DNA from: Pseudomonadota bacterium
GTDB taxonomy: Bacteria > Myxococcota > Myxococcia > Myxococcales > Myxococcaceae
Length of the DNA: 64,000 bases
Direction: 5' to 3'
NCBI GenBank assembly: GCA_023423535.1
Contig: JAFAFL010000097.1
Coordinates: 1 to 64,000 of the forward strand
The translations under genes and the position numbers were made by a program. Numbering within the stretch: the stretch's first letter is position 1; every line of letters begins with the position of its first letter. The notes below the pieces were generated by a model, which had not been told where the DNA came from, searched no databases, and saw only the letters and a list, made by a program, of their open reading frames with translations. This document shows positions 2,659 to 34,051 of this stretch, one piece after another.

Positions 2659-4034
2659 CGTGCGCTCTCCTGCGCCTTCAGCTCGAGAGCGGCACGCGCC
2701 ACCGCTCGACCGGCCCGCGCTCCGGAATCCGCCGCCGCGCCGGCGCTCCCTCCGCCCACCAGATCTCCCGCCACGAACACGTCCTCCGCCGCCGTGCGGC
2801 CCTCCGCATCCGCGACGACCACGAAGGTCTCGCGCGCGGGATCGAAAAGGACCTCCGCACCGCCCTGGCGCGCGAGCTCATACGCCGGCGAGGGCGGCAG
2901 GCACACCGCCACCGCGTCGCAGTCCGTGCGGTGTTTCTTGCCCTTCGCGTCTCGCCAGCTGAGGCCCTTCACCTCGGTCCGCCCGTGCACGGTGAGCGGC
3001 TCGGCGCCGCGATCCACGAGCACCTCCGCCTTCACCTCCGCGCCCGCAGCGACGAGCAGGCGACGCTGATTCGCTACCCACTCTTCCGTTCCCACGAGCG
3101 CGAACTTCGTCCCCGGCAAGTTCGCCTCGCGCCGCACGAGCCTCGCCACCGCTCGCCCCGCCATCACGCCCGGCACGTCGTTGTTGTCGAAGGGCCACAG
3201 CGCCGCGTGCCCGCCGTTCGCGAGGAGGAAGCGCTCCGCGTACACCTTCAACAGCCGCGGGCCACGGCCGGCATCTCCGCCACCGAACGACACCGCCGCG
3301 AGGTAGCGCCCCTCCGCATCCGAGAAGAGGCCGATGACCACCGTCTTCAGCCGCAGCGACTCGGCGGGCAGCGATGCGGTGAACGCGGTGACGGGCGGAT
3401 CCTTCTCCGCCGGCGCGTCGTCGAGCAGCCGGCCACCGGGCGTCTCCTCGCGATCGATCAGCAGGAACTTCACGCCCGCGTTCACCAGCTCCCGCGCAGC
3501 GGCAAGGCCTGCGGGTCCTGCGCCCATCACGACCACCGGCACCTTCACGGTCTCCCGCGGCGCTCGCTCGGGCGGCAAGGCGTCGGGCAGCTCGCCGAGC
3601 CCCGCCAGGTGCCGCGCCACGCGCGCCATGACCTTCTCCGCCACCGGCACGCCCGCAAACATCTCGTGGTGGTCGAGCCCCTTCGGGAAGAGCCAGTCGA
3701 TGGCCCCGAACACGTCGTGCTTCACCGACGGGTAGGCGTTCTGGCGCTCCACCCTCATGCCCGCGGTGATCTTCGTGCGGCAGGTGAAGACGTTGGGCAC
3801 GCCGTTCACGCGCATGAGGCACTGCGAGCACGCCGCGCTCATGCACCAGGGACCTCGCGGCCGGTGGTACTTCACCGAGCGGGAGAAGACGGTCTCACCC
3901 GCTGCGAGGAGGGCCGACGCGATCGACTCGCCCTCCTTCGCGGGGAGCGCGGTCCCTTCGAAATCGAACTGCACGGTGCGGGGGGGCACATCGAGGCGGG
4001 GCATGCGGCGGCGGAACCTATGCGAGGCCCTCAC
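2655..4034 (-). CDS. HcnA/HcnB-like fusion: sarcosine-oxidase-alpha-type 2Fe-2S N-domain plus FAD/NAD(P)-binding oxidoreductase
   Basis: Cys-rich N-domain (CMSAACSQC...FTCRT); dinucleotide fold VVVMGAGPAGLAAAREL; start may be the internal M at aa 11. Confidence 0.65.
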   Translation of the reverse strand: MRASHRFRRRMPRLDVPPRTVQFDFEGTALPAKEGESIASALLAAGETVFSRSVKYHRPRGPWCMSAACSQCLMRVNGVPNVFTCRTKITAGMRVERQNAYPSVKHDVFGAIDWLFPKGLDHHEMFAGVPVAEKVMARVARHLAGLGELPDALPPERAPRETVKVPVVVMGAGPAGLAAARELVNAGVKFLLIDREETPGGRLLDDAPAEKDPPVTAFTASLPAESLRLKTVVIGLFSDAEGRYLAAVSFGGGDAGRGPRLLKVYAERFLLANGGHAALWPFDNNDVPGVMAGRAVARLVRREANLPGTKFALVGTEEWVANQRRLLVAAGAEVKAEVLVDRGAEPLTVHGRTEVKGLSWRDAKGKKHRTDCDAVAVCLPPSPAYELARQGGAEVLFDPARETFVVVADAEGRTAAEDVFVAGDLVGGGSAGAAADSGARAGRAVARAALELKAQESAR

Positions 4035-7990: not shown

Positions 7991-8114
7991 CTTCCTGCCT
8001 GGCCGCCCATTGAATCTGCGCAGTCCGGCTTGATACGAAGCGGACACTTTTTTGCCTCTCCGCAGTCCCCGTTTTCTCAGTCCTCGCAGTCACTCCCCCA
8101 GGAGCTTCACGCAC

Positions 8115-10142
8115 ATGGAAACCCTCCCCGAGCTCGCCGGACCGGTGGCCATCCTCGCCGGCGGCGGCCTGACCTTCCTCGCCGGCTTCGCGTGGATCAC
8201 CGTGAAGCTCTACCGAAAGGTCGATCAGGGCCGCGCGCTGATCATCAACCGCATGCGGGACGTGAAGGTCACCTTCAACGGCGGCATGGTCATCCCGGTC
8301 GTCCACCGCGCCGAGTTCATGGACATCTCGCTGAAGACCATCGAGATCGACCGCAAGGGCAAGGAGGGCCTCATCTGCCAGGACAACATCCGGGCGGACA
8401 TCAAGGTCACCTTCTTCGTGCGCGTGAACAAGACGCAGGAGGACGTGCTGAAGGTGGCGCAGTCCATCGGCTGCGCGCGCGCCTCCGACCAGAAGACGCT
8501 GGAGCAGCTCTTCGTGGCGAAGTTCTCCGAGGCCCTGAAGACCGTGGGCAAGCGGCTGAACTTCGAGTCGCTCTACGCCGAGCGCGACCACTTCAAGGAG
8601 CAGATCATCAACGTCATCGGCAAGGACCTCAACGGGTACACGCTCGAGGACGCGGCGATCGACTACCTCGAGCAGACGCCGATCGAGTTCCTCGACAAGG
8701 ACAACATCCTCGACGCGCAGGGCATCAAGAAGATCACCGAGCTCACCGCGCACCAGAACGTGCTGACGAACGACTTCCGGCAGGAGGAGCGGAAGGCGAT
8801 CACCAAGCAGAACGTGGAGGCGAACGAGGCGGTGCTCGCGCTCGAGCGCCAGCAGTCGGATGCGGAGGCGAAGCAGCGCCGCGAGGTGGAGACGGTGCGC
8901 GCCCGCGAGCTGGCGGAGACGGAGCGGGTGAAGAGCGAGGAGCACGCCCGCGCGCAGCTCGCCCGCATCAAGGCGGAGGAGGAGATCCTCATCAACGAGC
9001 AGAACAAGATGAGGCAGATCGAGGTCGCGCAGAAGAACCGCGAGCGCATCGTCGGCATCGAGGCGGAGAAGGTCGCGAAGGACAAGCAGCTCGAGGCGAT
9101 CTCGCGTGAGCGCGAGGTGGAGCTGAACCGGATCGCGAAGGAGAAGGCGCTGGAGGTCGAGCGCAAGGCGATCGCGGACGTGGTGCGCACGCGCATCGTC
9201 GTCGACAAGTCGGTGGCGGAGGAGGAGGAGAAGATCAAGGACCTCCGCGTCCGGGCCGAGGCGACCCGGCAGAAGGACGCGGCGGTCATCCACGCCGAGG
9301 CGGAGGCGCAGGAGCACCTCGTCAAGGAGATCAAGGCGGCGGAGGCCTCCGAGGAGGTCACGAAGATCGACGCGCGGAAGAAGCTGCTCACCGCCGAGGC
9401 GGACCTCGAGGCCGCGGACCGCAGCGCGCGCGCGAAGATGCGGCTCGCCGAGGGCATCCAGGCGGAGAGCGCGGCGAAGGGCCTCGCCGAGGTGCGGGTG
9501 AAGGAGGCGGACGCGCTCGCCACCGAGAAGCAGGGCCTGGCGGAGGCGCGGGTGGAGGAGCAGAAGGGCCTCGCGCTGGTGAAGGTGCAGGAGGCCGAAG
9601 CGGTCGCGATCCAGAAGCGCGGCGAGGCCGAGGCGGACGCCATCCAGCAGAAGCTCGAGGCGGAGGCGCGCGGTCTGGCGGAGAAGGCCACCGCGATGAA
9701 GGCGCTCGACGGCGTGGGCCGCGACCACGAGGAGTTCCGGCTCAAGCTCGAGAAGGAGAAGGCGGTGGAGCTCGCCGCGATCGACGTGCGCCGTCAGATC
9801 GCCGAGGCGCAGGCGAAGGTCATGGCCGAGGCCATGGGCAACGCGAAGATCAACATCGTCGGCGGCGACGGCCAGTTCTTCGAGCGCTTCGTGAAGGCGG
9901 TCTCGCTCGGCCAGTCGATGGACGCGGCGATCGATCAGTCCCAGTCGATGCAGACGTTCTTCAAGGACTACCTCTCCGGCCAGAAGAGCCTGCCGGACGA
10001 CCTGAAGGACATCCTCTCGCGGCCGGGCCTCACCGGTGACGCGCAGAACGTGGCGCTGACCGCGCTGCTGGCGAAGATGGCGCAGCAGCCCACGGTGCCG
10101 CTGGCGCAGCAGCTGAAGAACGTGGTCGATCCCGCGAAGTAG
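8115..10142 (+). CDS. Flotillin-like SPFH/band-7 protein with a long EA-rich coiled-coil tail (YqiK/FloT family)
   Basis: N-terminal TM, SPFH core (RALIINRMRDVKVTFNGGMVIPVVHRAEFMDISL), roughly 400 aa of heptad-rich coiled coil. Confidence 0.8.
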   Translation: METLPELAGPVAILAGGGLTFLAGFAWITVKLYRKVDQGRALIINRMRDVKVTFNGGMVIPVVHRAEFMDISLKTIEIDRKGKEGLICQDNIRADIKVTFFVRVNKTQEDVLKVAQSIGCARASDQKTLEQLFVAKFSEALKTVGKRLNFESLYAERDHFKEQIINVIGKDLNGYTLEDAAIDYLEQTPIEFLDKDNILDAQGIKKITELTAHQNVLTNDFRQEERKAITKQNVEANEAVLALERQQSDAEAKQRREVETVRARELAETERVKSEEHARAQLARIKAEEEILINEQNKMRQIEVAQKNRERIVGIEAEKVAKDKQLEAISREREVELNRIAKEKALEVERKAIADVVRTRIVVDKSVAEEEEKIKDLRVRAEATRQKDAAVIHAEAEAQEHLVKEIKAAEASEEVTKIDARKKLLTAEADLEAADRSARAKMRLAEGIQAESAAKGLAEVRVKEADALATEKQGLAEARVEEQKGLALVKVQEAEAVAIQKRGEAEADAIQQKLEAEARGLAEKATAMKALDGVGRDHEEFRLKLEKEKAVELAAIDVRRQIAEAQAKVMAEAMGNAKINIVGGDGQFFERFVKAVSLGQSMDAAIDQSQSMQTFFKDYLSGQKSLPDDLKDILSRPGLTGDAQNVALTALLAKMAQQPTVPLAQQLKNVVDPAK

Positions 10143-10169
10143 CCAAGGCTCTCAGAGAGGCACAACGAC

Positions 10170-13100
10170 ATGGCGGCCGAGACCCCTCACGCGGCACAGC
10201 CGGCGGGAGGGGCCGGGCAGGAGCACCTCGAGGGCGGCAGCTACGAGGTCATCCGCGCGCGGCTCCTTTCGCATGCAAAGGAGCTCGGGCTCCGCGCGGA
10301 CGCGCTGAACGACCGGCGCAAGCAGCTCTTCCGGGGCCAGGAGCTGGCGGTCCTCGGCAACGAGCGCGTGCGCACCGAGAACAACTGCGTCCCGTGCGAC
10401 CTCGTCGCCATCGGGCGGCACGTGCTCTTCGGGTACAACGTCTTTCTCGGGCTGAAGAGCGAGACGAAGGTCTCGGACGTGCTGTCGCTCCACAAGTTCG
10501 AGCCCACGAGCGAGGGCGGGTTCGACCTGTCGGAGGTCTCGACGGCGGAGGCTGGCGGGTTCCTCGCGGACGCGCGCTTCATCCGCGAGTTCGGCGAGCT
10601 CTACCGCTACTACAAGGGCACGCGGCTCGTGCAGCTGCGCCGTCCCGAAGGCCGGCTGTTGATGGTCTTCCAGGTGGGCGAGAGCGCGCGGGACGTGAAG
10701 GTGTTCCGCTTCGCGGTCGATCCGAACGGCAACGCCACCTACATCGACAACGCGGGCGAGCGCGAGAACGTCTATCCCGCGTCGCACGACTTCGAGTGGA
10801 CCGCCACCGGCCGCGACCAGTTCGTGCGCGGCATCCACCCCCACGTGAACATCCTCGACGAGGTCTTCGTGGAGACGGTGGGCGGCGACCTCACCGTCAA
10901 GGTCGAGAACAACACCCAGGACGGGCAGGGCATCTACTCCGAGCCGGTGGAGGACAGGAGCCAGTCGCTCGACGACGCGCAGATCCACTACGCGAAGGTC
11001 GGCACGCTCATCCTCCTCAAGGTGCTGCCCTTCCGCGAGCAGCAGTGGCGCTACCTCGTGTTCAACACGCGGTCGCGGCAGGTGGTGCGGATCGACGCCA
11101 TCGGCCAGGCGTGCGTGCAGCTGCCGGAGGATCAGGGGATCATCTTCCCCGGCGGCTATTACCTCCAGACCGGCGACTACAAGGTCTTCGACGCGGATCC
11201 GTCGGGCCTGATGATGAAGCGGGTGCGCAAGTCTCCGAACGGCGAGGACGTGCTCTACGTCTTCCATCGCCGCGAGGACGGGCACTACACGCTGCTGCCC
11301 TACAACCTCGTGCGCCGCGAGGTCTCGAACCCCATCCACTGCCACGGCTACTCGCTCTTCGACGACGGGAAGATGGTGCTCTTCCGGTCCACCTCCGACG
11401 AGCCGGCGCGCGTGCACCCGATGCAGGTGTGGCAGACGCCGTTCGTCAGCGTCGAGCACGCGGCGGCGGTGGTGCCGCAGGACGGCTCGTACCTGACGAA
11501 GGTGGGCAACGCGGATCTGGTGCGCGGGATCAGCGAGGCCTACACGCTCAAGCGCATCGCCGAGCAGGACGCGCCCACGCGGAGGACGTACGAAGACCTC
11601 ATCGCGCAGGCCGGCCGGATGGCGGACGCCTACTACTGGCTCGGCCACGACGAGGTGGGGCTGCTGCAGCGGGTGGAGGAGCTGCGCAAGACCGCGGACC
11701 TCATCGTCGGCGAGTTCGAGAAGGTCCAGGCGCTGAAGGCGAAGGCGCGCGCGGTGGTGCAGGAGGCGGAGGCGCAGCAGCGCGCGATCGTCGAGGGGCT
11801 GCGGCCGGAGTCGCTCGCGTCCGTCGACGAGTTCATGGAGAAGCTGGGGGCGCTGCGCAACCAGCGCGGGCACCTCATCACCCTGCGCGAGGTCCGCTAC
11901 GTCGATCTGGCGAGGCTGACCGAGCTGGAGAAGGAGGCCTCCGCCCACTTCGACGCGGTGAGCGTGGCGTGTGTGGAGTTCCTGCTCGGCGCGCAGGCGC
12001 TGGCGCCGCTGACGGCGAAGCTCGAGGAGCTGTTCGCCCAGGGCAAGCGGGTGGAGCGCTCCGCGGAGCTGAAGCCGCTGACGGAGGAGCTGGAGAAGAC
12101 GGGCCACGGGCTCGACGTGCTCGGCGAGGTGGTGGGGCAGCTGCAGGTGGGAGACCCCGTCGCGCGCGCGGCGATCCTCGAGGGGATCAGCGAGGTCTTC
12201 AGCCACCTCAACCGCGTCCGCGCGTCGCTCGCGTCGCGGAGGAAGGAGATCCTCGGGCGCGAGGGCAAGGCGGAGTTCGGCGCGCAGTTCAAGCTGCTGG
12301 GCCAGGCGATCGAGAGCGCCATCGGCCAGTGCGACACGCCGGAAAAGTGCGACGAGCAGCTGTCGCGGCTGACGGTGCAGCTGGAGGAGCTCGAGGGCCG
12401 CTTCGGCGAGTTCGACGAGTTCATCGCCGACCTCGCGAAGAAGCGCGAGGAGCTCTACGAGGCCTTCGGCGCGAAGCGGCAGCAGCTGCTCGACGAACGG
12501 CAGCGGCGGGCGCAGAACCTCTTCGGCGCGGCGGAGCGGATCCTCGCCGGCGTCTCGCGGCGCGCAGAGAGCTTCAAGACCGAGGACGAGCTCAACGCCT
12601 ACTTCGCGTCCGACGCGATGGTGCACAAGGCGCGGCAGATCAGCGAACAGCTGATGGCGCTCGGCGACTCGGTGCGCGCGGACGAGCTGCAGTCGAAGCT
12701 CAAGCAGGCCCGGCAGGACGCGGCGCGGGTGCTGCGCGACAAGAAGGAACTCTTCGAGGACGGGCAGAGCGTCATCAAGCTCGGCGCGCACCGCTTCAAC
12801 GTCAACACGCAGGCGCTGGAGCTCACCGTCGTGCCGCGCGAGGGCGGCCTTTCGCTCCACCTCACCGGCACCGACTTCTTCGAGAGCATCAGCGATCCCG
12901 CGCTCGCCTCCACGCGCGAGTACTGGGACCAGCACCTCGTCAGCGAGACGCCGGAGGTGTACCGGGCGGAGTACCTCGCGGCCTCCATGCTCTTCGACGC
13001 GGAGGAGGGACGGGGAGGGCTCTCCATCGCGGCGCTGCGCGAGGCACACCTGGGCGGCGAGGCGGCGGTGCTCGCGCGGGTCCGGGCGTACGCGCAGGAC

Positions 13101-15971
13101 CGCTACGACGAGGGCTACGAGCGCGGCGTCCACGATCACGACGCGGCCCGCGTGCTCGAGGCGTTGCTCGCGCTGCGCGACGGCGCGGGCCTCTTGCGCT
13201 TCCCGCCTTCTGCACGCGCGAACGCGCAGCTCTTCTGGGCCTTCGGTGGAGACGAGGCCGCGCGGGCGCTCTGGCACCGGCGCGCAGTGAGCCTCGGGCG
13301 GCTGCGCGAGTCGCTGCAGCGGGCGGCGGCGCTCTCCGCGCTGGCGGAGGAACTCTCCGCTCCCATCGCGCAGTTCCTCCAGACCGCGCGCGTGGCCGCT
13401 TCACAAGAGGAGGCGAAGCTGTCCGCGCGGTACCTCGTGGAGGAGCTGGTGGCGGAGGCGCCGCGCTTCGTCACCGCGCAGGCCTCGCAGGCGTTGGCGG
13501 GGGCGTTCCTCGGTCACCTGGACCGCGTGGGGACGCGCCGCGCGTTCGAGGACGACCTCAGGCTGCTCGCGGGCCGCGTGTCTGAACGCCTCGCGCTGGC
13601 GACGGAGTGGCTCCAGGGCTTCGTGGAGGCCACGAACGTCCGCGTGGACCGCATCGGCGCCCAGGCGACCGGCGGCGGCCTCGACGCGCTGCTCGCCGAA
13701 GAGCGCCACGTGCTCCCCGAGGCGGTGGCGGTGCTGCTGACGGAGGGCGCGCTCACCCGCGACCTCTCCTCGGCGCGCGTGACGGCCGAGGTTGCAGGGC
13801 TTCTCGGTGCGCATCCCCGGGTGCGTGACGGGAAGCTCGCGCTGTCGCTCGACGAGTTCTCGGCGCGGCTGTTCCGCTTCGCACAGGTGCGCGTGCCGGG
13901 CTACCGCGCCTTCCGGGCGGGCCTGAGGGATCTGCTCGAGCGCGAGCGGCGGCGGCTGAAGCTCGACGAGATGCAGCCGAAGATCCTCTCGTCCTTCGTG
14001 CGCAACCGGCTCATCGGCGAGGTGTACCTCCCGCTCATCGGGCAGAACCTCGCGAAGCAGCTCGGCGCGGCGGGCGACACCAAGCGCACCGACCGGATGG
14101 GCCTTCTGCTCATCGTCTCGCCGCCGGGCTACGGCAAGACGACGCTCATCGAGTACGTGGCGGCGCGGCTCGGGCTGGTGTTCGTGAAGGTCAACGGGCC
14201 CGCGCTGGGGCACGACGTGACCTCGCTCGATCCCGCGGAGGCGCCGAACGCGGCGGCGAGGCAGGAGGTCGAGCGGATCAACCTCGCCTTCGAGATGGGG
14301 AACAACGTGCTGCTGTATCTGGACGACATCCAGCACACGTCCCCGGAATTGCTGCAGAAATTCATCTCCCTCTGCGACGGCCAGCGCCGCATCGAGGGCG
14401 TGTACAAGGGCCGCACCCGCACCTACGACCTGCGCGGGAAGAAGTTCGCGGTGGTGATGGCGGGCAACCCCTACACCGAGACCGGCGAGCGCTTCCGCAT
14501 CCCGGACATGCTCGCCAACCGCGCGGACACCTACAACCTCGGCGAGATCCTCGACGGCAAGGACGACCTCTTCGCGCTCAGCTACATCGAGAACGCGCTG
14601 ACGGCGAACACCGTGCTCGCGCCGCTCTCCGGCCGCGACCCGCAGGACGTGCACCGGTTCATCCGGATGGCGAAGGGCGAGGAGATCGCGCAGACGGACT
14701 TCGCGCACAACTACAGCGCAGTGGAGGTCTCCGAGATCGTCGCGGTGCTGCAGCGGCTCTTCCGCGTGCAGGAGACGCTGCTGAAGGTGAACCAGGCGTA
14801 CATCGCGTCCGCGTCGCAGGACGACAAGTACCGCACCGAACCGCCGTTCAAGCTCCAGGGCTCGTACCGGAACATGGCGAAGGTGACGGACAAGATCGTC
14901 GCCGCGATGACGCCGGACGAGGTCGAGCGCGTGCTCGACGATCACTACCAGGGCGAGTCGCAGGTGCTGACCGTCGGCGCGGAGCAGAACCTGCTCAAGC
15001 TCGCGGACCTGCGCGGCCGGCTCTCCGAGGCACAGCGTCAGCGCTGGGAGGAGATCAAGCGCAGCTATGCCCGCGTGCAGCTGATGGGCGGCTCCGAGGA
15101 CGATCCGGTGGCCCGGGTGACCGGTGGCCTCTCCGCGCTCAGCGGCGAGCTCTCCCACATCCGCGATGCGGTGATGCGGGCCGCGCAGTCGGCCTCGCAG
15201 ACCCAGCGGGAGCAGGCCGAGCGCACGCTGGAGCTGCTGAAGGCCGCGCAGGAGACGGCGGCCCAGGCGGCGAGAGCGGCGGAGAAGTCCCGCGCGGCGC
15301 CTCCGCCGCTGCCGACGGCGCAGGCCTCGTCGGGTTCGGCGGCCTCGCTCGACCCGAAGCTGATGGAGCTGTTGCAGACGCGGCTCGACGCGGTGGCGCG
15401 CGCGATGGTGGAGGTCGCGCGGATCGCGGCACGTCCTCCGCCGAAGCCCGAACCCGCAGCCGCGGCCGTCGTCCAGGCACAGGTCCAGCCCCAGCCCGCG
15501 CAGCCGCCGCAGCCTCAGGTGGATCTGACGCCCTACCTCGAGCGGCTGGAGAGCGTGCTCCGCGTGGTGGCTCAGCGCGCGGTGCAGCCGCCGCAGCAGC
15601 CCCAGCCGCAGCGGCCTTCTGCGGAGCCATCGGTGGATCTGTCGCCCTACCTCGAGCGGCTCGACGAGGTGCTGCGCGCCCTCGCCGAGCGCCCGCTGGC
15701 GGTGAACGCCGAAGCCCTGCAGCGCGCCGCGAGCCCTTCCGCCGCGCCGTCATCTTCAGGCCCGACGATCACCCCCGCGCACTACGACCGGCAGATCGAT
15801 CTGGTGCAGCGCGCGCTCGCCCCGCTGGCCCGCATCGCCCGGCGCACGCTGCGCGACGAGGGCGGCGGCTCCATCCGGTCCATCGAGGTCTGGCGTCACG
15901 TGAACGAGGCCCTCCAGTTGCTGCAGACCATCCCGCCGAACCCCGAGACGCCGCCGGAGACGAAGCCGTGA
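10170..15971 (+). CDS. Giant 1933-aa protein: beta-rich N-terminal region, long coiled-coil segments, embedded MoxR-type AAA+ ATPase module, C-terminal Pro/Gln-rich region with a duplicated ~35-aa motif
   Basis: Walker A GYGKTTLIEYVA, Walker B VLLYLDDIQH, sensor-1-like VVMAGNPYTE, Arg finger region RIPDMLANRAD (aa ~1190-1330); direct repeat VDLTPYLERLESVLR / VDLSPYLERLDEVLR; family unknown. Confidence 0.6.
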   Translation: MAAETPHAAQPAGGAGQEHLEGGSYEVIRARLLSHAKELGLRADALNDRRKQLFRGQELAVLGNERVRTENNCVPCDLVAIGRHVLFGYNVFLGLKSETKVSDVLSLHKFEPTSEGGFDLSEVSTAEAGGFLADARFIREFGELYRYYKGTRLVQLRRPEGRLLMVFQVGESARDVKVFRFAVDPNGNATYIDNAGERENVYPASHDFEWTATGRDQFVRGIHPHVNILDEVFVETVGGDLTVKVENNTQDGQGIYSEPVEDRSQSLDDAQIHYAKVGTLILLKVLPFREQQWRYLVFNTRSRQVVRIDAIGQACVQLPEDQGIIFPGGYYLQTGDYKVFDADPSGLMMKRVRKSPNGEDVLYVFHRREDGHYTLLPYNLVRREVSNPIHCHGYSLFDDGKMVLFRSTSDEPARVHPMQVWQTPFVSVEHAAAVVPQDGSYLTKVGNADLVRGISEAYTLKRIAEQDAPTRRTYEDLIAQAGRMADAYYWLGHDEVGLLQRVEELRKTADLIVGEFEKVQALKAKARAVVQEAEAQQRAIVEGLRPESLASVDEFMEKLGALRNQRGHLITLREVRYVDLARLTELEKEASAHFDAVSVACVEFLLGAQALAPLTAKLEELFAQGKRVERSAELKPLTEELEKTGHGLDVLGEVVGQLQVGDPVARAAILEGISEVFSHLNRVRASLASRRKEILGREGKAEFGAQFKLLGQAIESAIGQCDTPEKCDEQLSRLTVQLEELEGRFGEFDEFIADLAKKREELYEAFGAKRQQLLDERQRRAQNLFGAAERILAGVSRRAESFKTEDELNAYFASDAMVHKARQISEQLMALGDSVRADELQSKLKQARQDAARVLRDKKELFEDGQSVIKLGAHRFNVNTQALELTVVPREGGLSLHLTGTDFFESISDPALASTREYWDQHLVSETPEVYRAEYLAASMLFDAEEGRGGLSIAALREAHLGGEAAVLARVRAYAQDRYDEGYERGVHDHDAARVLEALLALRDGAGLLRFPPSARANAQLFWAFGGDEAARALWHRRAVSLGRLRESLQRAAALSALAEELSAPIAQFLQTARVAASQEEAKLSARYLVEELVAEAPRFVTAQASQALAGAFLGHLDRVGTRRAFEDDLRLLAGRVSERLALATEWLQGFVEATNVRVDRIGAQATGGGLDALLAEERHVLPEAVAVLLTEGALTRDLSSARVTAEVAGLLGAHPRVRDGKLALSLDEFSARLFRFAQVRVPGYRAFRAGLRDLLERERRRLKLDEMQPKILSSFVRNRLIGEVYLPLIGQNLAKQLGAAGDTKRTDRMGLLLIVSPPGYGKTTLIEYVAARLGLVFVKVNGPALGHDVTSLDPAEAPNAAARQEVERINLAFEMGNNVLLYLDDIQHTSPELLQKFISLCDGQRRIEGVYKGRTRTYDLRGKKFAVVMAGNPYTETGERFRIPDMLANRADTYNLGEILDGKDDLFALSYIENALTANTVLAPLSGRDPQDVHRFIRMAKGEEIAQTDFAHNYSAVEVSEIVAVLQRLFRVQETLLKVNQAYIASASQDDKYRTEPPFKLQGSYRNMAKVTDKIVAAMTPDEVERVLDDHYQGESQVLTVGAEQNLLKLADLRGRLSEAQRQRWEEIKRSYARVQLMGGSEDDPVARVTGGLSALSGELSHIRDAVMRAAQSASQTQREQAERTLELLKAAQETAAQAARAAEKSRAAPPPLPTAQASSGSAASLDPKLMELLQTRLDAVARAMVEVARIAARPPPKPEPAAAAVVQAQVQPQPAQPPQPQVDLTPYLERLESVLRVVAQRAVQPPQQPQPQRPSAEPSVDLSPYLERLDEVLRALAERPLAVNAEALQRAASPSAAPSSSGPTITPAHYDRQIDLVQRALAPLARIARRTLRDEGGGSIRSIEVWRHVNEALQLLQTIPPNPETPPETKP

Positions 15972-24196: not shown

Positions 24197-24272
24197 GAGG
24201 AGGGCAGGCGGCCATTCAGCTTCTAGGTTCGACAAGGGGTGCGTGCTAGGTTTCCGCGCAGAAGACACCCGC

Positions 24273-25916
24273 ATGAATGCGCCCGCGCTCGCCGCCCCCA
24301 AAGGTGCCCGGCTCAGCATCAAGCTGCCGGACGGTACCCTCACCGAGTACCCGCTCGCGCCGGTGAAGACGACGCTGGGACGGCATCCGGAGAACAGCAT
24401 CCAGCTCACCGACCGCGAGGTCTCCAAGGAGCACGCGGTCATCGAGCGGATGGGCGCGGCCTGGGTGCTGCGCGATCTGGGCTCGTCCAACGGCACCTTC
24501 GTCAACGGCCGGCGCGTCCGCGAGCTGCGCCTGCAGGACGGCGACCTCATCGCGCTGGGGAACAACTGCAAGCTGTCGTTCTTCGGCGGCGAGGGCGCTC
24601 CGACCCAGCCGGCGCCGGGGCCTTCGGTCACCGTCGTGGCCTCCGCGCACAGCATCCCCGCGTTCGTCGCGCAGCTCGAGCAGCGCGAGCAGACGGAGTT
24701 CCTCCCGGCCGATCAGCTCCGCGACGTGGAGGCGATCCGGCAGGACTACGAGAAGCTGCGGATCGCGCACAAGTTCCACCAGCAGGTCGGCCTCGAGCGC
24801 GACGCGAAGAGCCTCGCGGAGAAGATCCTGCGGGTGGCCTTCGAGCTGCTGGCCGCCGAACACGGCGTGCTCTTCTTCACCGACGAGAAGACGGGCGCGC
24901 TGGAGCCGGTGGCGGTGCACCACCGCAAAGGGGCTGCCGAGGTCTCGGTCTCGGAGACGGTGCTAAAGCGCGTGTCGGAGACGCACCAGGCGGTGCTGAC
25001 GAAGGACGCGATCCTCGATGCGCGGTTCTCCTCGTCGGAGAGCATCGTGGCGCAGGGCATCCGCAGCGCCATGGCGGTGCCGCTGGTGGCAAAGGGGCAG
25101 CTGAAGGGCGTGCTCTTCCTCGACAGCCGCGAGCGAAGCAACGCGTTCAGCGAGAAGGATCTGAAGATCCTCTCCGGCATCGCCTCGCAGGCGGCGATCG
25201 CGCTGGAGAACGCGGAGCTGGCGCGGAAGATCGAGGATGAGGCCATCACCCGCGCCGAGCTGTCGCGCTTCCTCTCCAAGGCCGTGGCGGAGGCGGTGAT
25301 CAAAGGGGACGTGGAGCTGCTCCGGTCGGGACAGCAGGCGGAGGTGAGCGTCCTCTTCGCCGACATCCGCGGCTTCACCTCCATGGCCGAGACCGAGGAT
25401 CCGACCGAGACGGTCGCAATGCTCAACCGCTTCTTCACCGCGATGGCCGACGTGGTGTTCCGGCACGACGGGAACCTCGACAAGTTCATCGGCGACTGCG
25501 TGATGGCGGTGTGGGGTCCTCCGAGGCCGAACGCAGACGACTCGGCGCGCGCGGTGAGGGCGGCGCTGGAGATGCAGGGCGAGGTCCGGCGCATCAACGA
25601 GGCGCGGCTCGCGGAGGGCCTCAAGCCGATCGAGGTGGGCATCGGCGTGAACACCGGCACCGCGATCGTCGGGTTCATGGGCTCGGCCGAGCGCCACGAG
25701 TTCACCGCCATCGGCGACACGGTGAACGTCGCCGCCCGCCTGTGCGACATGGCCCGCGGAGGTCAGGTCGTCGTCACCGAGAACACCGTGCGACGCGCCG
25801 CCGCCGGCTTCCGGGTCCAGCCGCTTCCCACCTCCCAGGTGAAGGGGAAGGAGAAGGGCGTCAACGCGTTCCTCGTGCTCGGGTTCGAGGAGACGGCGAG
25901 CACCCGGAGCCGCTGA
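24273..25916 (+). CDS. FHA domain - GAF domain - class III adenylate/guanylate cyclase
   Basis: FHA (TLGRHPENSIQLTDREVSKEHAVI...SSNGTFVNG), GAF, cyclase motifs (VSVLFADIRGFT...FIGDCVMAVWG...GVNTGTAIVG). Confidence 0.8.
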   Translation: MNAPALAAPKGARLSIKLPDGTLTEYPLAPVKTTLGRHPENSIQLTDREVSKEHAVIERMGAAWVLRDLGSSNGTFVNGRRVRELRLQDGDLIALGNNCKLSFFGGEGAPTQPAPGPSVTVVASAHSIPAFVAQLEQREQTEFLPADQLRDVEAIRQDYEKLRIAHKFHQQVGLERDAKSLAEKILRVAFELLAAEHGVLFFTDEKTGALEPVAVHHRKGAAEVSVSETVLKRVSETHQAVLTKDAILDARFSSSESIVAQGIRSAMAVPLVAKGQLKGVLFLDSRERSNAFSEKDLKILSGIASQAAIALENAELARKIEDEAITRAELSRFLSKAVAEAVIKGDVELLRSGQQAEVSVLFADIRGFTSMAETEDPTETVAMLNRFFTAMADVVFRHDGNLDKFIGDCVMAVWGPPRPNADDSARAVRAALEMQGEVRRINEARLAEGLKPIEVGIGVNTGTAIVGFMGSAERHEFTAIGDTVNVAARLCDMARGGQVVVTENTVRRAAAGFRVQPLPTSQVKGKEKGVNAFLVLGFEETASTRSR

Positions 25917-25919
25917 GGG

Positions 25920-28040
25920 ATGCCCAGCCAGGCCTGCCCCAACTGCCAGCGCGCCCACGACGTGAAGGTCTACGTCACCGGGCAGCGCGTGCTGTGCGGG
26001 TGTGGCATCCGCTTCGAGGTCCGGCGCACGGACGTGTCCGCGCCGAGCGGGCAGAGCATGATCGGGCCCGCTCTCAGCACCACCTCGGCGCCCACCTCGC
26101 CGGAGCGGCCGTCGGTGCGCGGGATGACCGAGGCGCACGTGCCCGGCTCGTCGGTCGTCTCGGTCGTCTCGTCGGATGCGACGTTCATTCCGCCCTCACA
26201 GGCGGGCAACGAGGTCGCGGTCGCAGTGCCGGTGGACGCCACCGCGATGAGCCGGCCGGGCATCGAGATCCCCGGCTACACGCTGGAGCGGTTGCTCGGG
26301 CGCGGTGGGATGGGCGAGGTCTGGCGCGCGGTGCAGCAGTCGCTGGGCCGCACGGTGGCGGTGAAGATCCTCCCGCCGCAGAGCGCGAAGGATCCGGAGT
26401 TCGTCGCGCGGTTCGAGAAGGAGAGCGCGGCGCTGGCGGCGCTGAGCCACCCGCACATCATCCAGATCATCGACCGCGGCAGTGCGGACGGGAACTACTA
26501 CTTCGTCATGGAGTACGTGGAGGGTCAGACCCTCCGCGAGGCGATGGGTTCGGGGCGGGTGAGCATCTCCGAGGCCCCGCGGATCGTGCTGCAGATCCTC
26601 CGCGCCATGGAGGCGGCGCACCACAAGAGCATCATCCACCGCGACCTCAAGCCGGAGAACATCCTCCTCGACGGGCGCGGGCACGCGAAGGTGGCGGACT
26701 TCGGGCTGGCGGGCATCCGAGGCGGCGAGGAGCGACACCAGCTCACCGCCACCAGCGTGGCGATGGGCACCATCAACTACATGGCCCCCGAGCAGCGTCG
26801 GGATGCGCGCAGCGTGGATCAGCGCGCGGACCTCTACGCGGTGGGCGTCATCCTCTACGAGCTGCTCACCGGTGAGCTGCCCATTGGCCGCTTCCGGCTG
26901 CCGTCGGAGCGCATCAGCGGGATCGATCCTCGCTACGACCCGATCGTCGAACGGCTGCTTCAGCCGGATCCTTCTCAGCGTCACGCGAGCGCGGGTGAGG
27001 TCATCGCGGAGCTCGAGCCGCTGGTGTCGTCGATCTCTCCGCGCGCGGCGAGCGGTGCCCTGGCGGGTGCCGGTGCGATGCCCGCGGGCGCGGCGACGAA
27101 CGGAGGGACTTCGCCTCGCGCGGTGTCCGTGGTGCAGCGGGGCTTCCGCGGCGTGCGCACAGGGCTGATGGTCATCGGTGCGCTGGCGACGATCGCGTTC
27201 GCGTCCCGCTTCTTCTTCGGCGCGGATCCGTCGGTGACGATCAGCGGCGGGGGCAAGGAGTTCGTGCTCTCCGCGAACGGGAAGGGCGCGCAGTCGAAGC
27301 TGCCGCTGTCCTCGGGCAGCACCTACGGCGAGGTCTTCAGCGAGGTCGTGGAGGAAGAGCTCGCCGGCGGTCGCACGTCGATGAGGATGACGTTCGGGCC
27401 AGGACCGGAAGAGCTCAACGTCCACACCGGCGAGTGGAAGATGGGCGAGGGCCGGCTCACCGTCGTGCAGGTGGGCAACACCGTCCCGGACGGCAAGCGC
27501 CTCATCCCGCGCGCGTTCGTGGCGCACCGCTACTTCACCGCCGACGACTTCGAAGCCGAGACCGAGCTCGTGCTGCGCGACACGGCGGACCGCTACCAGC
27601 TCGATGCGGAGGCGCAGCGCTTCGCGGAGATCGCATTTCGCATCCGCGATCTCCAGGTGTCGGCGTTCGCCATCCCGGGCGTGGGGATGCGGCTCGGCTG
27701 GCGCTACTACACGGAGGACGGCAGCGAGATCGTCGGCAACAGCGCGCGCGATCTGGAGCTGATGGTGGAGGACGAGACGCCCACGCCGCCGGACGGCAAG
27801 CCGTTCAAGCTCAAGCTCGTGCTGCGCAGACAGCCGGGCAAGGACGCGGTGGAGGCGATCGGGTACCTCGATGGCCGCCGCTTCGCGCGCAAGGTGCTGC
27901 CCGGGCTGCAGGGCCAGGTGGGCAAGATCGCGCTCGGGTGCCGCAACTACGAGTGCTCCTTCGACAACGTGTCGGTGAAGGGCACCGAAGAGGACGGCCC
28001 GCGGCGGCGTCGCAGCGTGGCGGACGCGCAGACGGAGTAA
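25920..28040 (+). CDS. Ser/Thr protein kinase with N-terminal zinc ribbon, TM segment and C-terminal extracytoplasmic domain
   Basis: CPNCQ...CGCG ribbon; kinase subdomains GRGGMGEVWRA, VAVK, HRDLKPENILL, DFGLA, APE; 4 bp downstream of the cyclase gene. Confidence 0.85.
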   Translation: MPSQACPNCQRAHDVKVYVTGQRVLCGCGIRFEVRRTDVSAPSGQSMIGPALSTTSAPTSPERPSVRGMTEAHVPGSSVVSVVSSDATFIPPSQAGNEVAVAVPVDATAMSRPGIEIPGYTLERLLGRGGMGEVWRAVQQSLGRTVAVKILPPQSAKDPEFVARFEKESAALAALSHPHIIQIIDRGSADGNYYFVMEYVEGQTLREAMGSGRVSISEAPRIVLQILRAMEAAHHKSIIHRDLKPENILLDGRGHAKVADFGLAGIRGGEERHQLTATSVAMGTINYMAPEQRRDARSVDQRADLYAVGVILYELLTGELPIGRFRLPSERISGIDPRYDPIVERLLQPDPSQRHASAGEVIAELEPLVSSISPRAASGALAGAGAMPAGAATNGGTSPRAVSVVQRGFRGVRTGLMVIGALATIAFASRFFFGADPSVTISGGGKEFVLSANGKGAQSKLPLSSGSTYGEVFSEVVEEELAGGRTSMRMTFGPGPEELNVHTGEWKMGEGRLTVVQVGNTVPDGKRLIPRAFVAHRYFTADDFEAETELVLRDTADRYQLDAEAQRFAEIAFRIRDLQVSAFAIPGVGMRLGWRYYTEDGSEIVGNSARDLELMVEDETPTPPDGKPFKLKLVLRRQPGKDAVEAIGYLDGRRFARKVLPGLQGQVGKIALGCRNYECSFDNVSVKGTEEDGPRRRRSVADAQTE

Positions 28041-28082
28041 CTTCGAACACAACTGGATTTTTCAGCAAAGGTAAGCTGTCCT

Positions 28083-30926
28083 ATGAAAACGCTGCGCGAA
28101 CTCAAACTCTCCGCAGGACGCAACGTAATAAAGCGGTTTGCAATAAACAACACCACCTCCGCACTCGGACTAATAACCGAAAGCGGCGACGTTATTGTAA
28201 TTGATGTGTCTTCCGGACGTCGCATCTTTCAGTTTGTGGGCGGCCCCACACGAGCGAGCGCAATCGCTTGGAGCGAAGCCGAGAGGTGCTTTCTTTGGGG
28301 CACCACCGATGGCCGAATATTGTTCTGGGACGGCGTTGGAACAAAGTCGCACTTTAAGGCGACTACGGCTCGCAGGTCGCAGAAGAAGCGGAAAAGCTTT
28401 GACCGTCACGGCCAACCTCTTGCACCCATCCCGACATCCGAGCGCGCGCCCGCTGACCGTTCAGCCGTCCTAGCTATAAGTGTTTCACGAACCGGAAAGA
28501 TCGCAGCCATAGTTCAAGACGGCACTTGCTGGGTCATCGAGTCAGGCAGTCGGCATACAGCAACCGCGCGTCTCTTTTGCATGCCCGTGCAGGCGCTGTG
28601 GTCGAATCAAGAGGACCTAGCAATCTCCTATTCTGATGGGTCGGTGCAGCTCATAAGTGGTGACCGAGCGATCTGGATCGAGCAACCACAGGGCAGCATC
28701 ACACCTCAGGATCTAGCAGAGTTCGTTCCCTTTGTGACACAAGATTTCGCTGTCTCCTTCCCCGCAACAACTGCGCGCCACGCCTTCAATCGCACATGGA
28801 CCACCAAGGAAATCGACTACATCACCAAACTCAGCTCAGCAGAAATTGCATCGACCATAAACTATGACGCAACATTCGCTAGGCTCCTCGGCTCATCGTT
28901 GCCTATTGGATGGGGCCGTGACTCCACTCTAATCTTGGGTGGCCGACACGGAGAGGTGCAGTTAGTCGACCGTGCGACCGGCAAGCCGAGAATGGTGCTT
29001 GAGCAGTTCGCGACAACTATCAGGGAGGTCGCCGGAAGCGAAACTGGCGTGTTTGTCACTGTTGACGTGAATGGCGTAATGCGCCTGTGGAATTACGAGA
29101 GCTTGAGTCCAATCCACATCCGCCAGGTGAGCAACGAAGCGCGCGACAGTGGATTACAGTCGATTGATTTGGCCGCGAACGGGACCGCGCTCGCTGTGAG
29201 ACGCGACCGCCACAGCGTGGATATTCTCGTACTGGATGTCGCAGCGACCAGCGCGGACGCGTCGCAAGGAAGCGGGACCGTACGATATACGACCGCGAAA
29301 ATCGTCCTTGTCGGGGACAGCGGTGCCGGGAAGACTGGTCTAGGGTGGCGACTAGCTAAGGGTGCATTCGCGGAACACTCTTCGACCCACGGTCAGCAGT
29401 TCTGGGTTGTTCCTAGTCTATCCCAAGAAGAGTCAAGTGGCTGGCATCGAGAGGCCGTGCTGTGGGATCTGGCTGGTCAAGCAGACTACCGCATCACCCA
29501 CGCACTATCACTTGACAACGTGGATGTCGCCATTCTTGTGATGGATGGCGCAAGCACAGGCGAGGCTCTCAAGGGCGTTCGGTATTGGCTTAACCAATTG
29601 CGACACTCAGAGAAGCCTGCGCCACGAACAATTTTGGTGGGAGCACGGGCGGATCGGGGCGTGCCGGCTCTAAGCAATCAGGAGTTGGCCGCATTCTGTG
29701 CCGAAACCCACATTGAAGGCGGTTTCGTCCTTACGAGCGCGTTAACCGGCGAAGGCCTCCCCGATTTGATGGCCAAAATTGCGAATCTCATAGATTGGTC
29801 AGCCCAGACCAAGACTGTCGCCACGGCATCGTTCAAGCAAATACGGAATTTTGTTCTCGGCGCCAAAGAACGACTAACGGCGACGCCCCTCCAGTCCATT
29901 GAGGCGCTATTTCAGGCTGCGCTGGACAGCGGAATGAGCGTTGACGTGGAGGATTTCGAGGCAGCGCTCTTCAATCTCGCCAAGCACGGATACATCACCC
30001 TCATTTCGACGGTGGATGGCTTGGATGCTGTATTGCTGGCGCCCGAAGTCCTGATAAACCTTGCGTCGTCGATTGTGCTGGAGGCTCGACGAAACCCCAA
30101 GGGACTCGGAGCTATAGACGAGCAACTGATCCTTGATGGCAGAATAGAATCGCGCGAGCTAGTAGCCCTACCCAAAGACACTCAAGACACGCTACTGCTC
30201 GCCGCGATCCGACTTTTTGTTAGCCATAACCTCTGCTTCCGGGAGCGACTCGGAGCAACGAGCTTGTTTGTTTTTCCGGCCCTCATCAACATGAGACGCA
30301 AGGTTACGGCTGACATTGAGCGCTACGACGCAGGGGCGTGGTATGAAATCTCGGGCGCCACTGAGAACCTCTATGCCGTCTGCGTCGTGTTGCTAGGCTA
30401 TACAAACACCTTCAATCGCGCAGCGCACTGGCAAAGCGAAGCAGAGTACGAGACCGAGCGGGGTGAACTATGCAGCCTTCAGTCCCATGACTCCGCAGGC
30501 GGTGGAGTTGTGTTCCAGCTCCGATACTCGCAGCGCACGTCGATGCCAACGCGAACTCTCTTTCAATCACTGGTGGAGCGAATACTTCTGAGACGCAACT
30601 TGCAGGTTAAGCGATTCTTGGCGCCGATTTGCGGTGGGTGCACTGAAAGCCTGCCTCGCGAGGTCGTTTCGGCAAGAATCCGCAGCGGCAAGCAGGATTC
30701 GTTCTGCACGAACTGCGGGAGGGCGATGGTGTTGCCGTCTGGCGATGTTCTTGACACGGCCGAAAGTGCGTCCGGCGCAATACGCATTCAAGAGAAGGTT
30801 TCACATGTAAGGACGCGATATGAGGAGGCGCTCTCGGTCGCCAAGGCTACAGCTCAGCAATTGCACGGCCGGCTGCCTTCGGTGTCCGTGTTCGTCAGTT
30901 ATGCGTGGGGGGGGGCGATGGTATAG
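28083..30926 (+). CDS. ROCO-type protein: WD40 beta-propeller - Roc (Ras-like GTPase) - COR - CxxC...CxxC zinc ribbon; ORF terminated by a frameshift in a G9 tract, with TIR domain continuing in another frame
   Basis: G1 GDSGAGKT, G3 WDLAGQ, G4-like GARAD; WD-like repeats (GTTDGRILFWD, SYSDGSVQLISGD); lower-GC codon usage; last residues SVFVSYAW begin a TIR motif. Confidence 0.6.
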   Translation: MKTLRELKLSAGRNVIKRFAINNTTSALGLITESGDVIVIDVSSGRRIFQFVGGPTRASAIAWSEAERCFLWGTTDGRILFWDGVGTKSHFKATTARRSQKKRKSFDRHGQPLAPIPTSERAPADRSAVLAISVSRTGKIAAIVQDGTCWVIESGSRHTATARLFCMPVQALWSNQEDLAISYSDGSVQLISGDRAIWIEQPQGSITPQDLAEFVPFVTQDFAVSFPATTARHAFNRTWTTKEIDYITKLSSAEIASTINYDATFARLLGSSLPIGWGRDSTLILGGRHGEVQLVDRATGKPRMVLEQFATTIREVAGSETGVFVTVDVNGVMRLWNYESLSPIHIRQVSNEARDSGLQSIDLAANGTALAVRRDRHSVDILVLDVAATSADASQGSGTVRYTTAKIVLVGDSGAGKTGLGWRLAKGAFAEHSSTHGQQFWVVPSLSQEESSGWHREAVLWDLAGQADYRITHALSLDNVDVAILVMDGASTGEALKGVRYWLNQLRHSEKPAPRTILVGARADRGVPALSNQELAAFCAETHIEGGFVLTSALTGEGLPDLMAKIANLIDWSAQTKTVATASFKQIRNFVLGAKERLTATPLQSIEALFQAALDSGMSVDVEDFEAALFNLAKHGYITLISTVDGLDAVLLAPEVLINLASSIVLEARRNPKGLGAIDEQLILDGRIESRELVALPKDTQDTLLLAAIRLFVSHNLCFRERLGATSLFVFPALINMRRKVTADIERYDAGAWYEISGATENLYAVCVVLLGYTNTFNRAAHWQSEAEYETERGELCSLQSHDSAGGGVVFQLRYSQRTSMPTRTLFQSLVERILLRRNLQVKRFLAPICGGCTESLPREVVSARIRSGKQDSFCTNCGRAMVLPSGDVLDTAESASGAIRIQEKVSHVRTRYEEALSVAKATAQQLHGRLPSVSVFVSYAWGGAMV

Positions 30927-31420
30927 GTGCGTGGTGTCAGAGGCTTGTGGATGATCTTGAATCTGCTGGCGTTCGGACATTCTTTGACTTGAACGACAAC
31001 TCTGCGATCGGAAAGAGCGTGTCGCGCTTTGTGTCCCTGGCAGCGGAGGCTTCGCATATTCTCGTTATTGGAACAACGGAGTATCTTGCGAAGTACCTAA
31101 ACAACGTATCGCCAACTGGAAGTATTGTTGCCGCGGAAGCCGATATCATTCAGCATCGACTGACGCGGACGGAGCTTGAGAAGGAAAGCGTGTTGCCAGT
31201 GCTGAGGGATGGTGCGCCTGAGTCTTCGTTTCCGCCGCTGCTACGTGGCAGGGCCTACGCTGACTTCCGGAGGGAAGAGGAGTACTTCCTGCGCCTGTAT
31301 GGGCTTGTGTTGACGTTGTGGGGCGTGCCAGCGACACATCTTGCTGTGCGGCCGGTTCTTGCTAGCCTCATGGCTTCAGTCGAAACACAGGCAAAGTCGG
31401 CCGTTTGCGCGACCTCATAA
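30905..31420 (+). pseudogene. TIR-like domain ORF fragment; frame-shifted continuation of the ROCO gene (putative full protein WD40-Roc-COR-ZnR-TIR of about 1110 aa)
   Basis: TIR-like pattern after the SVFVSYAW box: RLVDDLESAGVRTFFDLNDNSAIGKSV...ILVIGTTEYLAKYLNN; G9 homopolymer at 30907-30915 separates the frames. Confidence 0.5.
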
Positions 31421-31594
31421 CGACATCAAGACTGGTTTCGTGTGTTTGTTGTTTCTTGTGAACGTGAGGTGCTTTGAGTTTATTGGGGACTTGCTGCGGT
31501 TGGTCGTGGCGGCGTTTGCTGGAGCTAGGTGAATGCGGCCTCGGCGATCCGTCATCTTCACGGCCATAACTTCTCTTGCGATCTTGGAGTCCCC

Positions 31595-31977
31595 ATGTCC
31601 CGCCCGCTCTTCGCTGCCTCCCTCGCGCTCTCGTTGCTCGCCGCGCCGCTCGCCGTCGCACATGAGCTGTCGCAGGAGGAGGAGAGGCCCCTGCGGTGGT
31701 GAAGAAGGGGGCGTGCCTGCAGAGGATTGAGGGACCAGCTCCCGCCCGCGTTCTGCAAGCCGACCATGTACTTCCATCAGTGCTTCTCCATCACCGAGGA
31801 GCAGTGCTTGGAGACCGCGAAGAAGACGACGGAGAGCTGCCTCGCGCAGCACGACAAGGAGTGCCGGCGAGCTTCGAGCAGCCGCAGGACGGCACCACGA
31901 GGGGCGCGAAGATCGGCACCTGCGCCAGCATCGCCTTGGAGTCCACGCACAAGGCGAAGCTGTCGAAGGAGGAGTAG
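31595..31977 (+). pseudogene. Possible degraded small secreted Cys-containing protein gene (signal peptide, then coding signal hopping between two frames)
   Basis: MSRPLFAASLALSLLAAPLAVA signal peptide; in-frame TGA at 31697; GC3 coding signal switches frame at about 31697, 31740 and 31868. Confidence 0.25.
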
Positions 31978-32013
31978 TGCAAGGACGCATCGAACTGGAT
32001 TCCCTGAGCCGCG

Positions 32014-33035
32014 CTACTCCGTCCAGTGACACGCGGCGAGGTGGTCGGTGGCGACGCGGCGGAGCTCCGGCTCTCGCTGGCGGCACGCGAGCTGACGATC
32101 CGCGGGCAGCGTCCGGTAGAGCGGGCAGCGGGTGTGGAAGCGGCAGCCGGTGGGCGGGTTCGTGGGGCTCGGGACTTCGCCGCTGAGCACGGCCGGTGGA
32201 CGCGCGCGGGAGACCTCCGGATCCGGGAAGGGGATCGCCGCGTTGAGCGCCTGCGTGTAGGGATGCACCGGCTGGCGGTAGATGGCCTTTGCCGGCGCGA
32301 CCTCCACCAGCTTGCCCAGGTACATCACCGCGACGCGGTCCGCGAGGTGCCGCACCGCGGCCATGTCGTGCGAGATGAAGAGCATCGTCAGGCCGAAGGT
32401 TCGCTGCAGCCCGAGCAGCAGGTTCATGATCTGCGCGCGGATGCTCACGTCGAGCGCGGAGAGCGGCTCGTCCGCGACGATGAACGCGGGCGAGAGCGCG
32501 ATGGCCCGGGCAATGGCGACACGCTGGCGCTGGCCGCCGGAGAACTCGTGCGGAAAGCGGCGGACGTCGCGCGGGGAGAGGCCGCACAGCTCCACCAGTT
32601 CACGGACGCGCGCTTCGATCACGCGGGGCGAGCCGTAGTCGTTCGCGCGCAGCGGCTCCGCGATGAGGCTGCCCACCGTCATCCTCGGGTTCAAGGAGGC
32701 GAACGGGTCCTGGAAGATCATCTGAAGGTTTGGCCGGTGGCGACGGAGGGCGCGGCCCTGCAACCGCAGAATGTCCTCTCCGTCGAAGACGACCTTGCCG
32801 CCGGCCGCGGGGATGAGGCGTGCCAGCGCTCGGCCCACGGTGGACTTGCCGCAGCCGGATTCGCCCACGAGGCCCAGCGTCTCGCCGCGTCCGAGGTCGA
32901 ACGAGATGCCGTCCACCGCGCGCACCACGCCCACCGTCTTCGGCAGGAACACGCCGCGGGTGACGGGGAAGTGGACCTCCAGGTTCTGCACCGAGAGGAG
33001 CTTTCCCACCGGCGCCGTGACCAGCGCGCGCTCGC

Positions 33036-33039
<4 letters not shown>
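32014..33039 (-). CDS. oppF: Oligopeptide/dipeptide ABC transporter ATP-binding protein
   Basis: Walker [10 protein letters not shown], signature LSGGQRQR, Walker B FIVADEP, C-terminal oligopeptide-ABC extension. Confidence 0.85.

Positions 33040-34051
<1,012 letters not shown>

Follow-up and report, generated by a model that had tools for sequence, protein, structure and literature searches.

Introduction

In prokaryotic conflict systems that combine an AP-GTPase (Roc) with a COR domain, at least 24 alternative domains can occupy the C-terminal effector slot (Kaur, Iyer, Burroughs & Aravind 2021, PMC8195603). The SEFIR domain is known from bSEFIR, a single-protein anti-phage system (Millman et al. 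2022; bioRxiv 10.1101/2022.05.11.491447) that has been reported to deplete NAD+ (bioRxiv 10.1101/2024.02.11.579819). In the Pgl system of Streptomyces coelicolor, the G tract of pglX switches at 1e-2 to 1e-4, and changes in the tract relieve the toxicity of PglX (PMC4365076); the phase variation of pglX goes back to Sumby & Smith (2003, as cited in PMC4365076). Here we describe a locus that shares features with each of these. It lies in the first 64,000 nucleotides of contig JAFAFL010000097.1 (GenBank assembly GCA_023423535.1), referred to below as the window, and it consists of a ROCO-type gene predicted to encode WD40 repeats, a Roc GTPase, a COR domain and a C-terminal SEFIR/TIR-like effector domain. 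The reading frame of this gene is broken inside the effector domain, at a run of nine G (G9).

A nine-G tract breaks the reading frame within the effector domain

The nine consecutive G that the initial annotation reported were confirmed by count, and the ends and frames of the open reading frames (ORFs) bear out its placement of the tract where the ROCO ORF stops and the TIR-like frame continues (Table 1). ORF1 encodes 947 amino acids (aa) and ends in ...SVFVSYAWGGAMV, or, over a longer stretch, ...LPSVSVFVSYAWGGAMV. The effector frame is -1 relative to ORF1. It is open from 30824 to a stop at 31418-31420, is uninterrupted for 171 codons downstream, and encodes ...VGGGDGIGAWCQRLVDDLESAGVRTFFD... 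At G9 the frame reads WGG-AMV-stop, that is, three out-of-frame codons after the tract and then a stop.

The effect of tract length was computed. Addition of one G (G10) fuses the frames into a protein of 1112 aa, and loss of two (G7) fuses them into one of 1111 aa, whereas loss of one (G8) leads into the third frame and a truncation at 956 aa. The lengths in frame are G7, G10 and G13, and those out of frame are G8, G9, G11 and G12. The expectation that adding or removing one G would join the two ORFs is thus correct for addition and wrong for removal.

The tract is at codon 942 of 1,112, 85% of the way along the gene. The break falls inside the SEFIR/TIR domain: strand 1 (VFVSYA) is encoded by ORF1, and the frame changes in the loop before helix A. 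Because of this, neither product has a complete effector domain. The TIR domain had been described as severed from the ROCO protein. The frameshift stands, but the cut is not a clean one between domains, since the strand VFVSYA lies upstream of it, as indicated both by the Pfam TIR_2 match (residues 936-1067) and by an AlphaFold (AF2) model of the last 343 aa of the repaired protein (see below; moderate confidence, mean predicted local distance difference test score 68). In this model the tract encodes a Gly-rich loop that directly follows strand A (VFVSYA) and precedes helix A.

G9 is the sole homopolymer of eight or more bases in the window, which has 69% GC. The number of G/C runs of nine or more expected analytically from the conditional G-run frequencies of the window itself (orders 3-4) is 0.02-0.1 per window, and 0.002-0.012 within the 4-kb island that carries the gene. 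The only other long homopolymer is a G7 at 3980-3986, all remaining runs being six bases or shorter. This G7 is situated where the 5' regions of two divergent high-GC3 ORFs overlap, an aldehyde dehydrogenase (+) and a 462-codon ORF (-), and it would be suitable as an internal control for indel rates at the level of reads. The tract region also resembles 30714-30730 over 17 nt, which was judged to be due to chance; what the two share is one 10-mer within 4 kb.

A long tract and a frame break found in this copy only

Domain and homologue searches used the repaired protein, the G9 ORF with one G added (G10), as query. It has at least 1,293 homologues (E < 1e-5), the best of which is 47% identical. 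The homologues listed are ~700 to 1,600 aa long, typically ~1,000 aa, and nearly all have Roc and TIR_2 on one uninterrupted protein. The sole match at 100% identity is the truncated 947-aa ORF itself, which is on record in NCBI, ENA and Logan.

The site was compared among 80 loci obtained in a scan of GTDB representative genomes. These span Acidobacteriota, Planctomycetota, Verrucomicrobiota, Actinoplanes, Thioploca, cyanobacteria and one archaeal metagenome-assembled genome (MAG). Throughout the family the junction motif, [FV][IV]SYAWG-x6-W[VI], hardly varies; seven residues separate its two Trp, and it could be located in 68 of the loci. In every one of these the ORF runs uninterrupted through SYAWG, and the G-run at the Trp-Gly codons is G4 in 65 loci, G5 in two and G6 in one. 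Both the long tract and the broken frame are thus peculiar to this copy. A G7 tract would restore the Trp-Trp spacing of the family and a G10 tract would give one extra Gly. As for the same locus in relatives, which had been put forward as a check, the metagenomic scaffold L002, which is closest in the flanking genes, lacks the gene, and a more distant relative, L083 (81%), is not syntenic, and it is the wider family, unbroken at 68/68 loci, that provides the comparison.

The WD40-Roc-COR-SEFIR/TIR family is large and uncharacterised, and no experimental characterisation of a member was found. It is especially common in Pyrinomonadaceae/Blastocatellia. Other loci are in Actinoplanes regularis (L011), Thioploca (L004) and a Thermoplasmata archaeon MAG (L077), and two loci each are present in SMAG_U8543, MFD01916.bin.1.29 and Algicola DT_2.

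Origin of the frameshift

The initial annotation offered phase variation, fixed inactivation and sequencing error as explanations. All three are retained here, with changed weights. We give about an even chance to G9 being a genuine, lineage-specific and very recent slippage frameshift, so that the gene is an OFF allele or a young pseudogene, reversible in principle. The gene would have been acquired horizontally and would encode, on its own, a conflict- or defence-type protein in which the WD40 region is the sensor, the Roc-COR GTPase the switch and the C-terminal SEFIR/TIR-like domain the effector. Its ancestor would have been in frame, with either G7 (TGG GGG GGC GAT, the spacing of the family) or G10 (one extra Gly), and G9 would have arisen from it by slipped-strand replication slippage. 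The cell would then make the 947-aa sensor-switch with strand 1 of the effector only, and the remaining 166 effector codons would go untranslated in frame. Such an allele would be OFF, a null or a young pseudogene of a potentially toxic NAD-depleting effector, and a single +1 slippage would revert it. Inactivation may have been neutral, or favoured, after the transfer.

The condition of the sequence beyond the break bears on its age. Positions at least 90% conserved in the family are kept at 34/39 downstream of the tract vs 150/186 upstream, and the ratio of downstream to upstream identity to homologues is 0.97, vs 0.93 +/- 0.08 among pairs of homologues. Because the downstream segment has no excess decay, the lesion appears to be very young, or the gene still under selection. 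As in a pseudogene, the frame is disrupted where the family is intact; further lesions or loss of conserved residues downstream, which an older pseudogene would be expected to have, were not found.

Three considerations weigh against a genuine recent lesion. An intact downstream segment would also be expected of a gene that is truly in frame, or of one that switches and is still selected. Close orthologues are lacking (the next best match is 47% identical), and the ancestral tract length can be derived only from the spacing in the family. Finally, the tract-length evidence comes from consensus assemblies (NCBI, ENA, Logan and JGI contigs), and all the records may share one library; a systematic homopolymer miscall common to every assembly of that library is doubtful, but it would account for the data.

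Were there such a miscall, the true tract would be G10 (or G7) and the gene an intact 1,112-aa WD40-Roc-COR-SEFIR protein. Indel miscalls classically occur at homopolymers of this length. The genome appears to be metagenome-assembled, the nearest named relatives of a housekeeping-type (conserved membrane) protein all being uncultured ones recorded as 'MAG: Deltaproteobacteria bacterium', at 66-68% identity; the 700-kb contig could mean long reads; and both halves of the gene are otherwise flawless. Against this, an independent assembly, the Logan k-mer assembly of SRR13358459, is identical to window positions 26641-32150 at 5,510/5,510 bases, G9 included, which makes a pure assembly error unlikely. 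In addition, the other 6-7-base homopolymers in the 64-kb window coincide with no frame break, and its long genes are intact, one ORF reaching 1,942 codons, so that indel error does not look pervasive. Three sources have the truncated product on record, although these are possibly one library and so not fully independent. Taken together, an intact gene hidden by a miscall seems rather unlikely.

Comparably unlikely, though with the miscall one of the two serious rivals, is the reading in which G9 is a contingency locus. Here the poly-G would be kept because slippage between G9 and G10 switches a costly or toxic SEFIR/TIR effector, and the consensus would have caught the OFF state of a selected ON/OFF switch in an acquired WD40-Roc-COR-SEFIR gene of abortive-infection type, in an uncultured deltaproteobacterium/Myxococcota-like lineage. 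A nine-G run is extreme for this genome and lies within the coding sequence of a defence-type gene, where its length sets the frame. Continued selection of ON variants would be expected to leave the downstream domain perfectly preserved, as it is, and there are precedents in pglX of the Pgl system of the high-GC bacterium S. coelicolor (PMC4365076) and in Neisseria lgt (PMC2192423). However, the tract is not kept in relatives (0/68 homologues), and its position so far into the gene means that the OFF state still yields a 947-aa protein. Only G9 was found among the NCBI, ENA and Logan consensus records. The products of G7, G8 and G10 had no exact match in a collection of 15 billion proteins, the junction pattern with G6-G12 had no match in JGI metagenome contigs, and the repaired junction plus effector, used as query, retrieved no near-identical fused fragment, only the 157-aa fragment derived from G9. 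These negatives are weak evidence, because public assemblies are consensus sequences.

Programmed recoding, by -1 ribosomal frameshifting on G GGG GGG or by RNA polymerase slippage on G9, would give both a truncated and a full-length protein. The shift needed is indeed -1, the heptamer at 30908-30914 formally matches X XXY YYZ in the 0 frame, and the 0-frame stop is three codons downstream. Nevertheless, a fold of 30900-31020 compared with 200 shuffles revealed no stable 3' structure (minimum free energy z = +0.59; 142/200 shuffles fold as well), an Rfam scan gave no match, and neither the tract nor the break is present in any of the 68 homologues. For a -1 frameshift site to be efficient, the A-site position has to hold an A or U triplet, and the transcriptional slippage known from bacteria takes place on A/T runs; slippery sites such as G GGG GGG are not known to work efficiently. 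With downstream RNA structure absent and the site missing from homologues, this is not a conserved recoding signal, and recoding as the main explanation was rejected as very improbable.

Least probable of all is a functional split into a sensor-switch and an effector made as two separate polypeptides: although the gene caller predicts a 157-aa ORF from GTG 30947 that scores as TIR_2, this ORF has no convincing ribosome-binding site and lacks strand A, which remains on ORF1, and half of helix A, while 68/68 homologues checked are fused and the break coincides exactly with a hypermutable tract.

Domain architecture and identity of the effector

The Roc domain of ORF1 matches Pfam Roc (PF08477) with E=8.3e-17 and 62 bits against a cut-off of 27, over residues 406-524 (~nt 29298-29654), and the sequence has the P-loop GDSGAGKT and the switch II motif DLAGQ of a Roc/Ras-like GTPase. 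The COR domain is predicted from structure. Foldseek aligned the AF2 model of the C-terminal 343 aa with the COR domain of Chlorobium Roco (3DPU/3DPT) with a probability of 0.97-0.99, but with E values of 0.02-0.04 and a low TM-score, and no Pfam COR match above threshold was found on the repaired protein. Weak WD40/beta-propeller Pfam matches cover the N-terminal 400 residues of the repaired protein. The N-terminal propeller (28083-29200, residues 1-~370) is far more divergent than the rest, and homologues mostly align from ~residue 300; this divergence would fit a fast-evolving sensor module.

At the C-terminus, TIR_2 matches the repaired protein at residues 936-1067 (E=3.1e-10, 41 bits against a cut-off of 28), and the PADLOC bSEFIR model matches it at residues 926-1095 (E=2.9e-17). 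A match to the full TIR/SEFIR domain is obtained only once the frame is repaired. Compared with structures in the PDB, the C-terminal profile scores best with prokaryotic SEFIR 5Y8F/5Y8E (E=6.6e-12 for 5Y8F), ahead of the bacterial TIRs 4LZP/3H16 (E=4e-4 to 2e-3). Foldseek places the rear part of the AF2 model with SEFIR 5Y8E (probability 0.96) and the front part with the Chlorobium Roco COR. By these scores the effector is nearer to bacterial SEFIR than to canonical TIR. The family-invariant AAE motif is retained in it. The description of the strain as carrying the sensor without its effector would hold if the frameshift is real, with the label of the effector adjusted from TIR to SEFIR-like by the bSEFIR and 5Y8F scores.

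These features suggest that the two ORFs are one gene for a single polypeptide of WD40-Roc-COR-(zinc-ribbon/coiled-coil)-SEFIR/TIR architecture, in which COR is taken from the model. Since bSEFIR is reported to deplete NAD+, the effector is a predicted NADase, and by analogy the WD40-Roc-COR-SEFIR protein could function in phage defence.

The insertion and neighbouring genes

The gene is carried on a low-GC insertion (Table 1). The metagenomic scaffold L002 (ENA ERZ28593428) matches the window at 98% identity on either flank, 25761-28042 and 32019-33795. There, 10 bp (2283-2292) take the place of the insertion, and a Ser/Thr kinase gene abuts an oligopeptide ABC ATPase gene. From the absence of the insertion between such similar flanks, the ROCO-SEFIR gene is the cargo of a recent insertion.

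The exact sequence AACTGGATT occurs only twice in the window, as a direct repeat near the two ends of the insertion. The right copy is extended to TCGAACTGGATT, and the left reads TCGAAC-ACAAC-TGGATT. A simple target-site duplication was ruled out for this repeat, which is absent from the empty site of L002. No transposase, recombinase/integrase, tRNA-like feature or terminal inverted repeat was found at the ends of the island.

Table 1. Position and strand of the features of the ROCO-SEFIR locus and its insertion, in window coordinates.
Feature	Position	Strand	Remarks
ORF1, 947 aa: divergent WD40 N-terminus, Roc, COR, CxxC...CxxC zinc-ribbon-like segment, helical linker, SEFIR/TIR strand 1 (VFVSYAW)	28083..30926	+	
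Rest of the SEFIR/TIR-like effector domain, -1 frame relative to ORF1	30905..31420	+	TIR_2 E=1.1e-8
G9 homopolymer	30907..30915	+	Trp-Gly-Gly(-Gly) codons of the conserved SYAWG motif; frameshift site
Low-GC insertion of 3,976 bp carrying the ROCO-SEFIR gene	28043..32018		~56% vs ~70% GC; absent from L002
9-bp direct repeat AACTGGATT, left copy	28051..28059	+	8 bp inside the insertion end
9-bp direct repeat AACTGGATT, right copy	31993..32001	+	17 bp inside the insertion end

The insertion also contains a stretch of higher GC, 31595-31977 (+), which resembles a small secreted Cys-containing protein with a signal-peptide-like start, MSRPLFAASLALSLLAAPLAVA... Its sense shifts between two or more frames, and for this reason it may be a second, decayed gene, with frameshifts outside homopolymers.

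Directly upstream of the insertion, at 24243-28040 (+), are an FHA-GAF-adenylate/guanylate cyclase gene and, after 3 bp, a gene for a 706-aa Ser/Thr protein kinase. This pair has the GC content of the host, and at least the kinase is conserved in L002, which has no island. Farther away, 8034-15971 (+) is a large two-gene module consisting of a 702-aa ORF without a Pfam match and, directly after it, the gene for a protein of 1,942 aa that contains DUF3686 ('ATPase involved in DNA repair', E=3e-202), DUF7902 and an AAA domain.

Implications

A frameshift is in itself a common and well-known kind of lesion, and what is most useful in the analysis are its by-products: a corrected model of the gene, the assignment of the effector to SEFIR and the precise limits of the 4-kb insertion. 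For annotation, the two ORFs should be treated as one gene with a SEFIR-like effector, belonging to a large WD40-Roc-COR-SEFIR/TIR family found across many phyla. If the frameshift is real, the locus would be a snapshot of a freshly imported, potentially self-toxic immune gene that has lost its effector at a mutational hot spot and kept its sensor-switch intact, and that one slippage could re-arm. It bears on how bacteria bear the cost of defences that deplete NAD, and on the reliability of pseudogene calls in metagenome-assembled genomes. Should the tract instead be a selected switch, it would extend homopolymer phase variation beyond restriction-modification and BREX, where it is known, to an immune protein that has an NTPase as its switch and a toxic effector of NADase type.

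Comparison with known systems

In poly-G contingency loci of the Neisseria lgt type (PMC2192423), the reading frame likewise depends on the length of a G homopolymer within the ORF. Their tracts, however, are conserved among strains and lie early in the gene, and their switching is documented; none of this is seen for G9. There is also a likeness to pglX of Pgl, a BREX-type phage defence. The gene belongs to a high-GC bacterium and has a poly-G within its coding sequence; its product, a component of the defence, is toxic when unbalanced, and a change of one G switches the gene (PMC4365076). The difference is that switching and length variants of pglX are established by experiment, whereas here G9 alone is seen, in an unrelated family, in an uncultured organism, and near the 3' end of the gene.

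In its domain order the protein resembles the AP-GTPase-COR systems (PMC8195603), in which a repeat-type sensor and a C-terminal slot for effectors likewise lie on either side of a Roc-type GTPase and COR. Those systems have N-terminal leucine-rich repeats, whereas the family described here has WD40 repeats and a SEFIR/TIR effector. The effector domain itself is that of bSEFIR, to judge by its matches to the PADLOC bSEFIR model (E=2.9e-17) and to Bacillus SEFIR 5Y8F (E=6.6e-12). In bSEFIR, a single protein, the SEFIR domain is N-terminal and there is no WD40-Roc-COR, whereas here it is C-terminal, behind WD40-Roc-COR on a ROCO-type GTPase. The two thus appear to share the domain but not the system.

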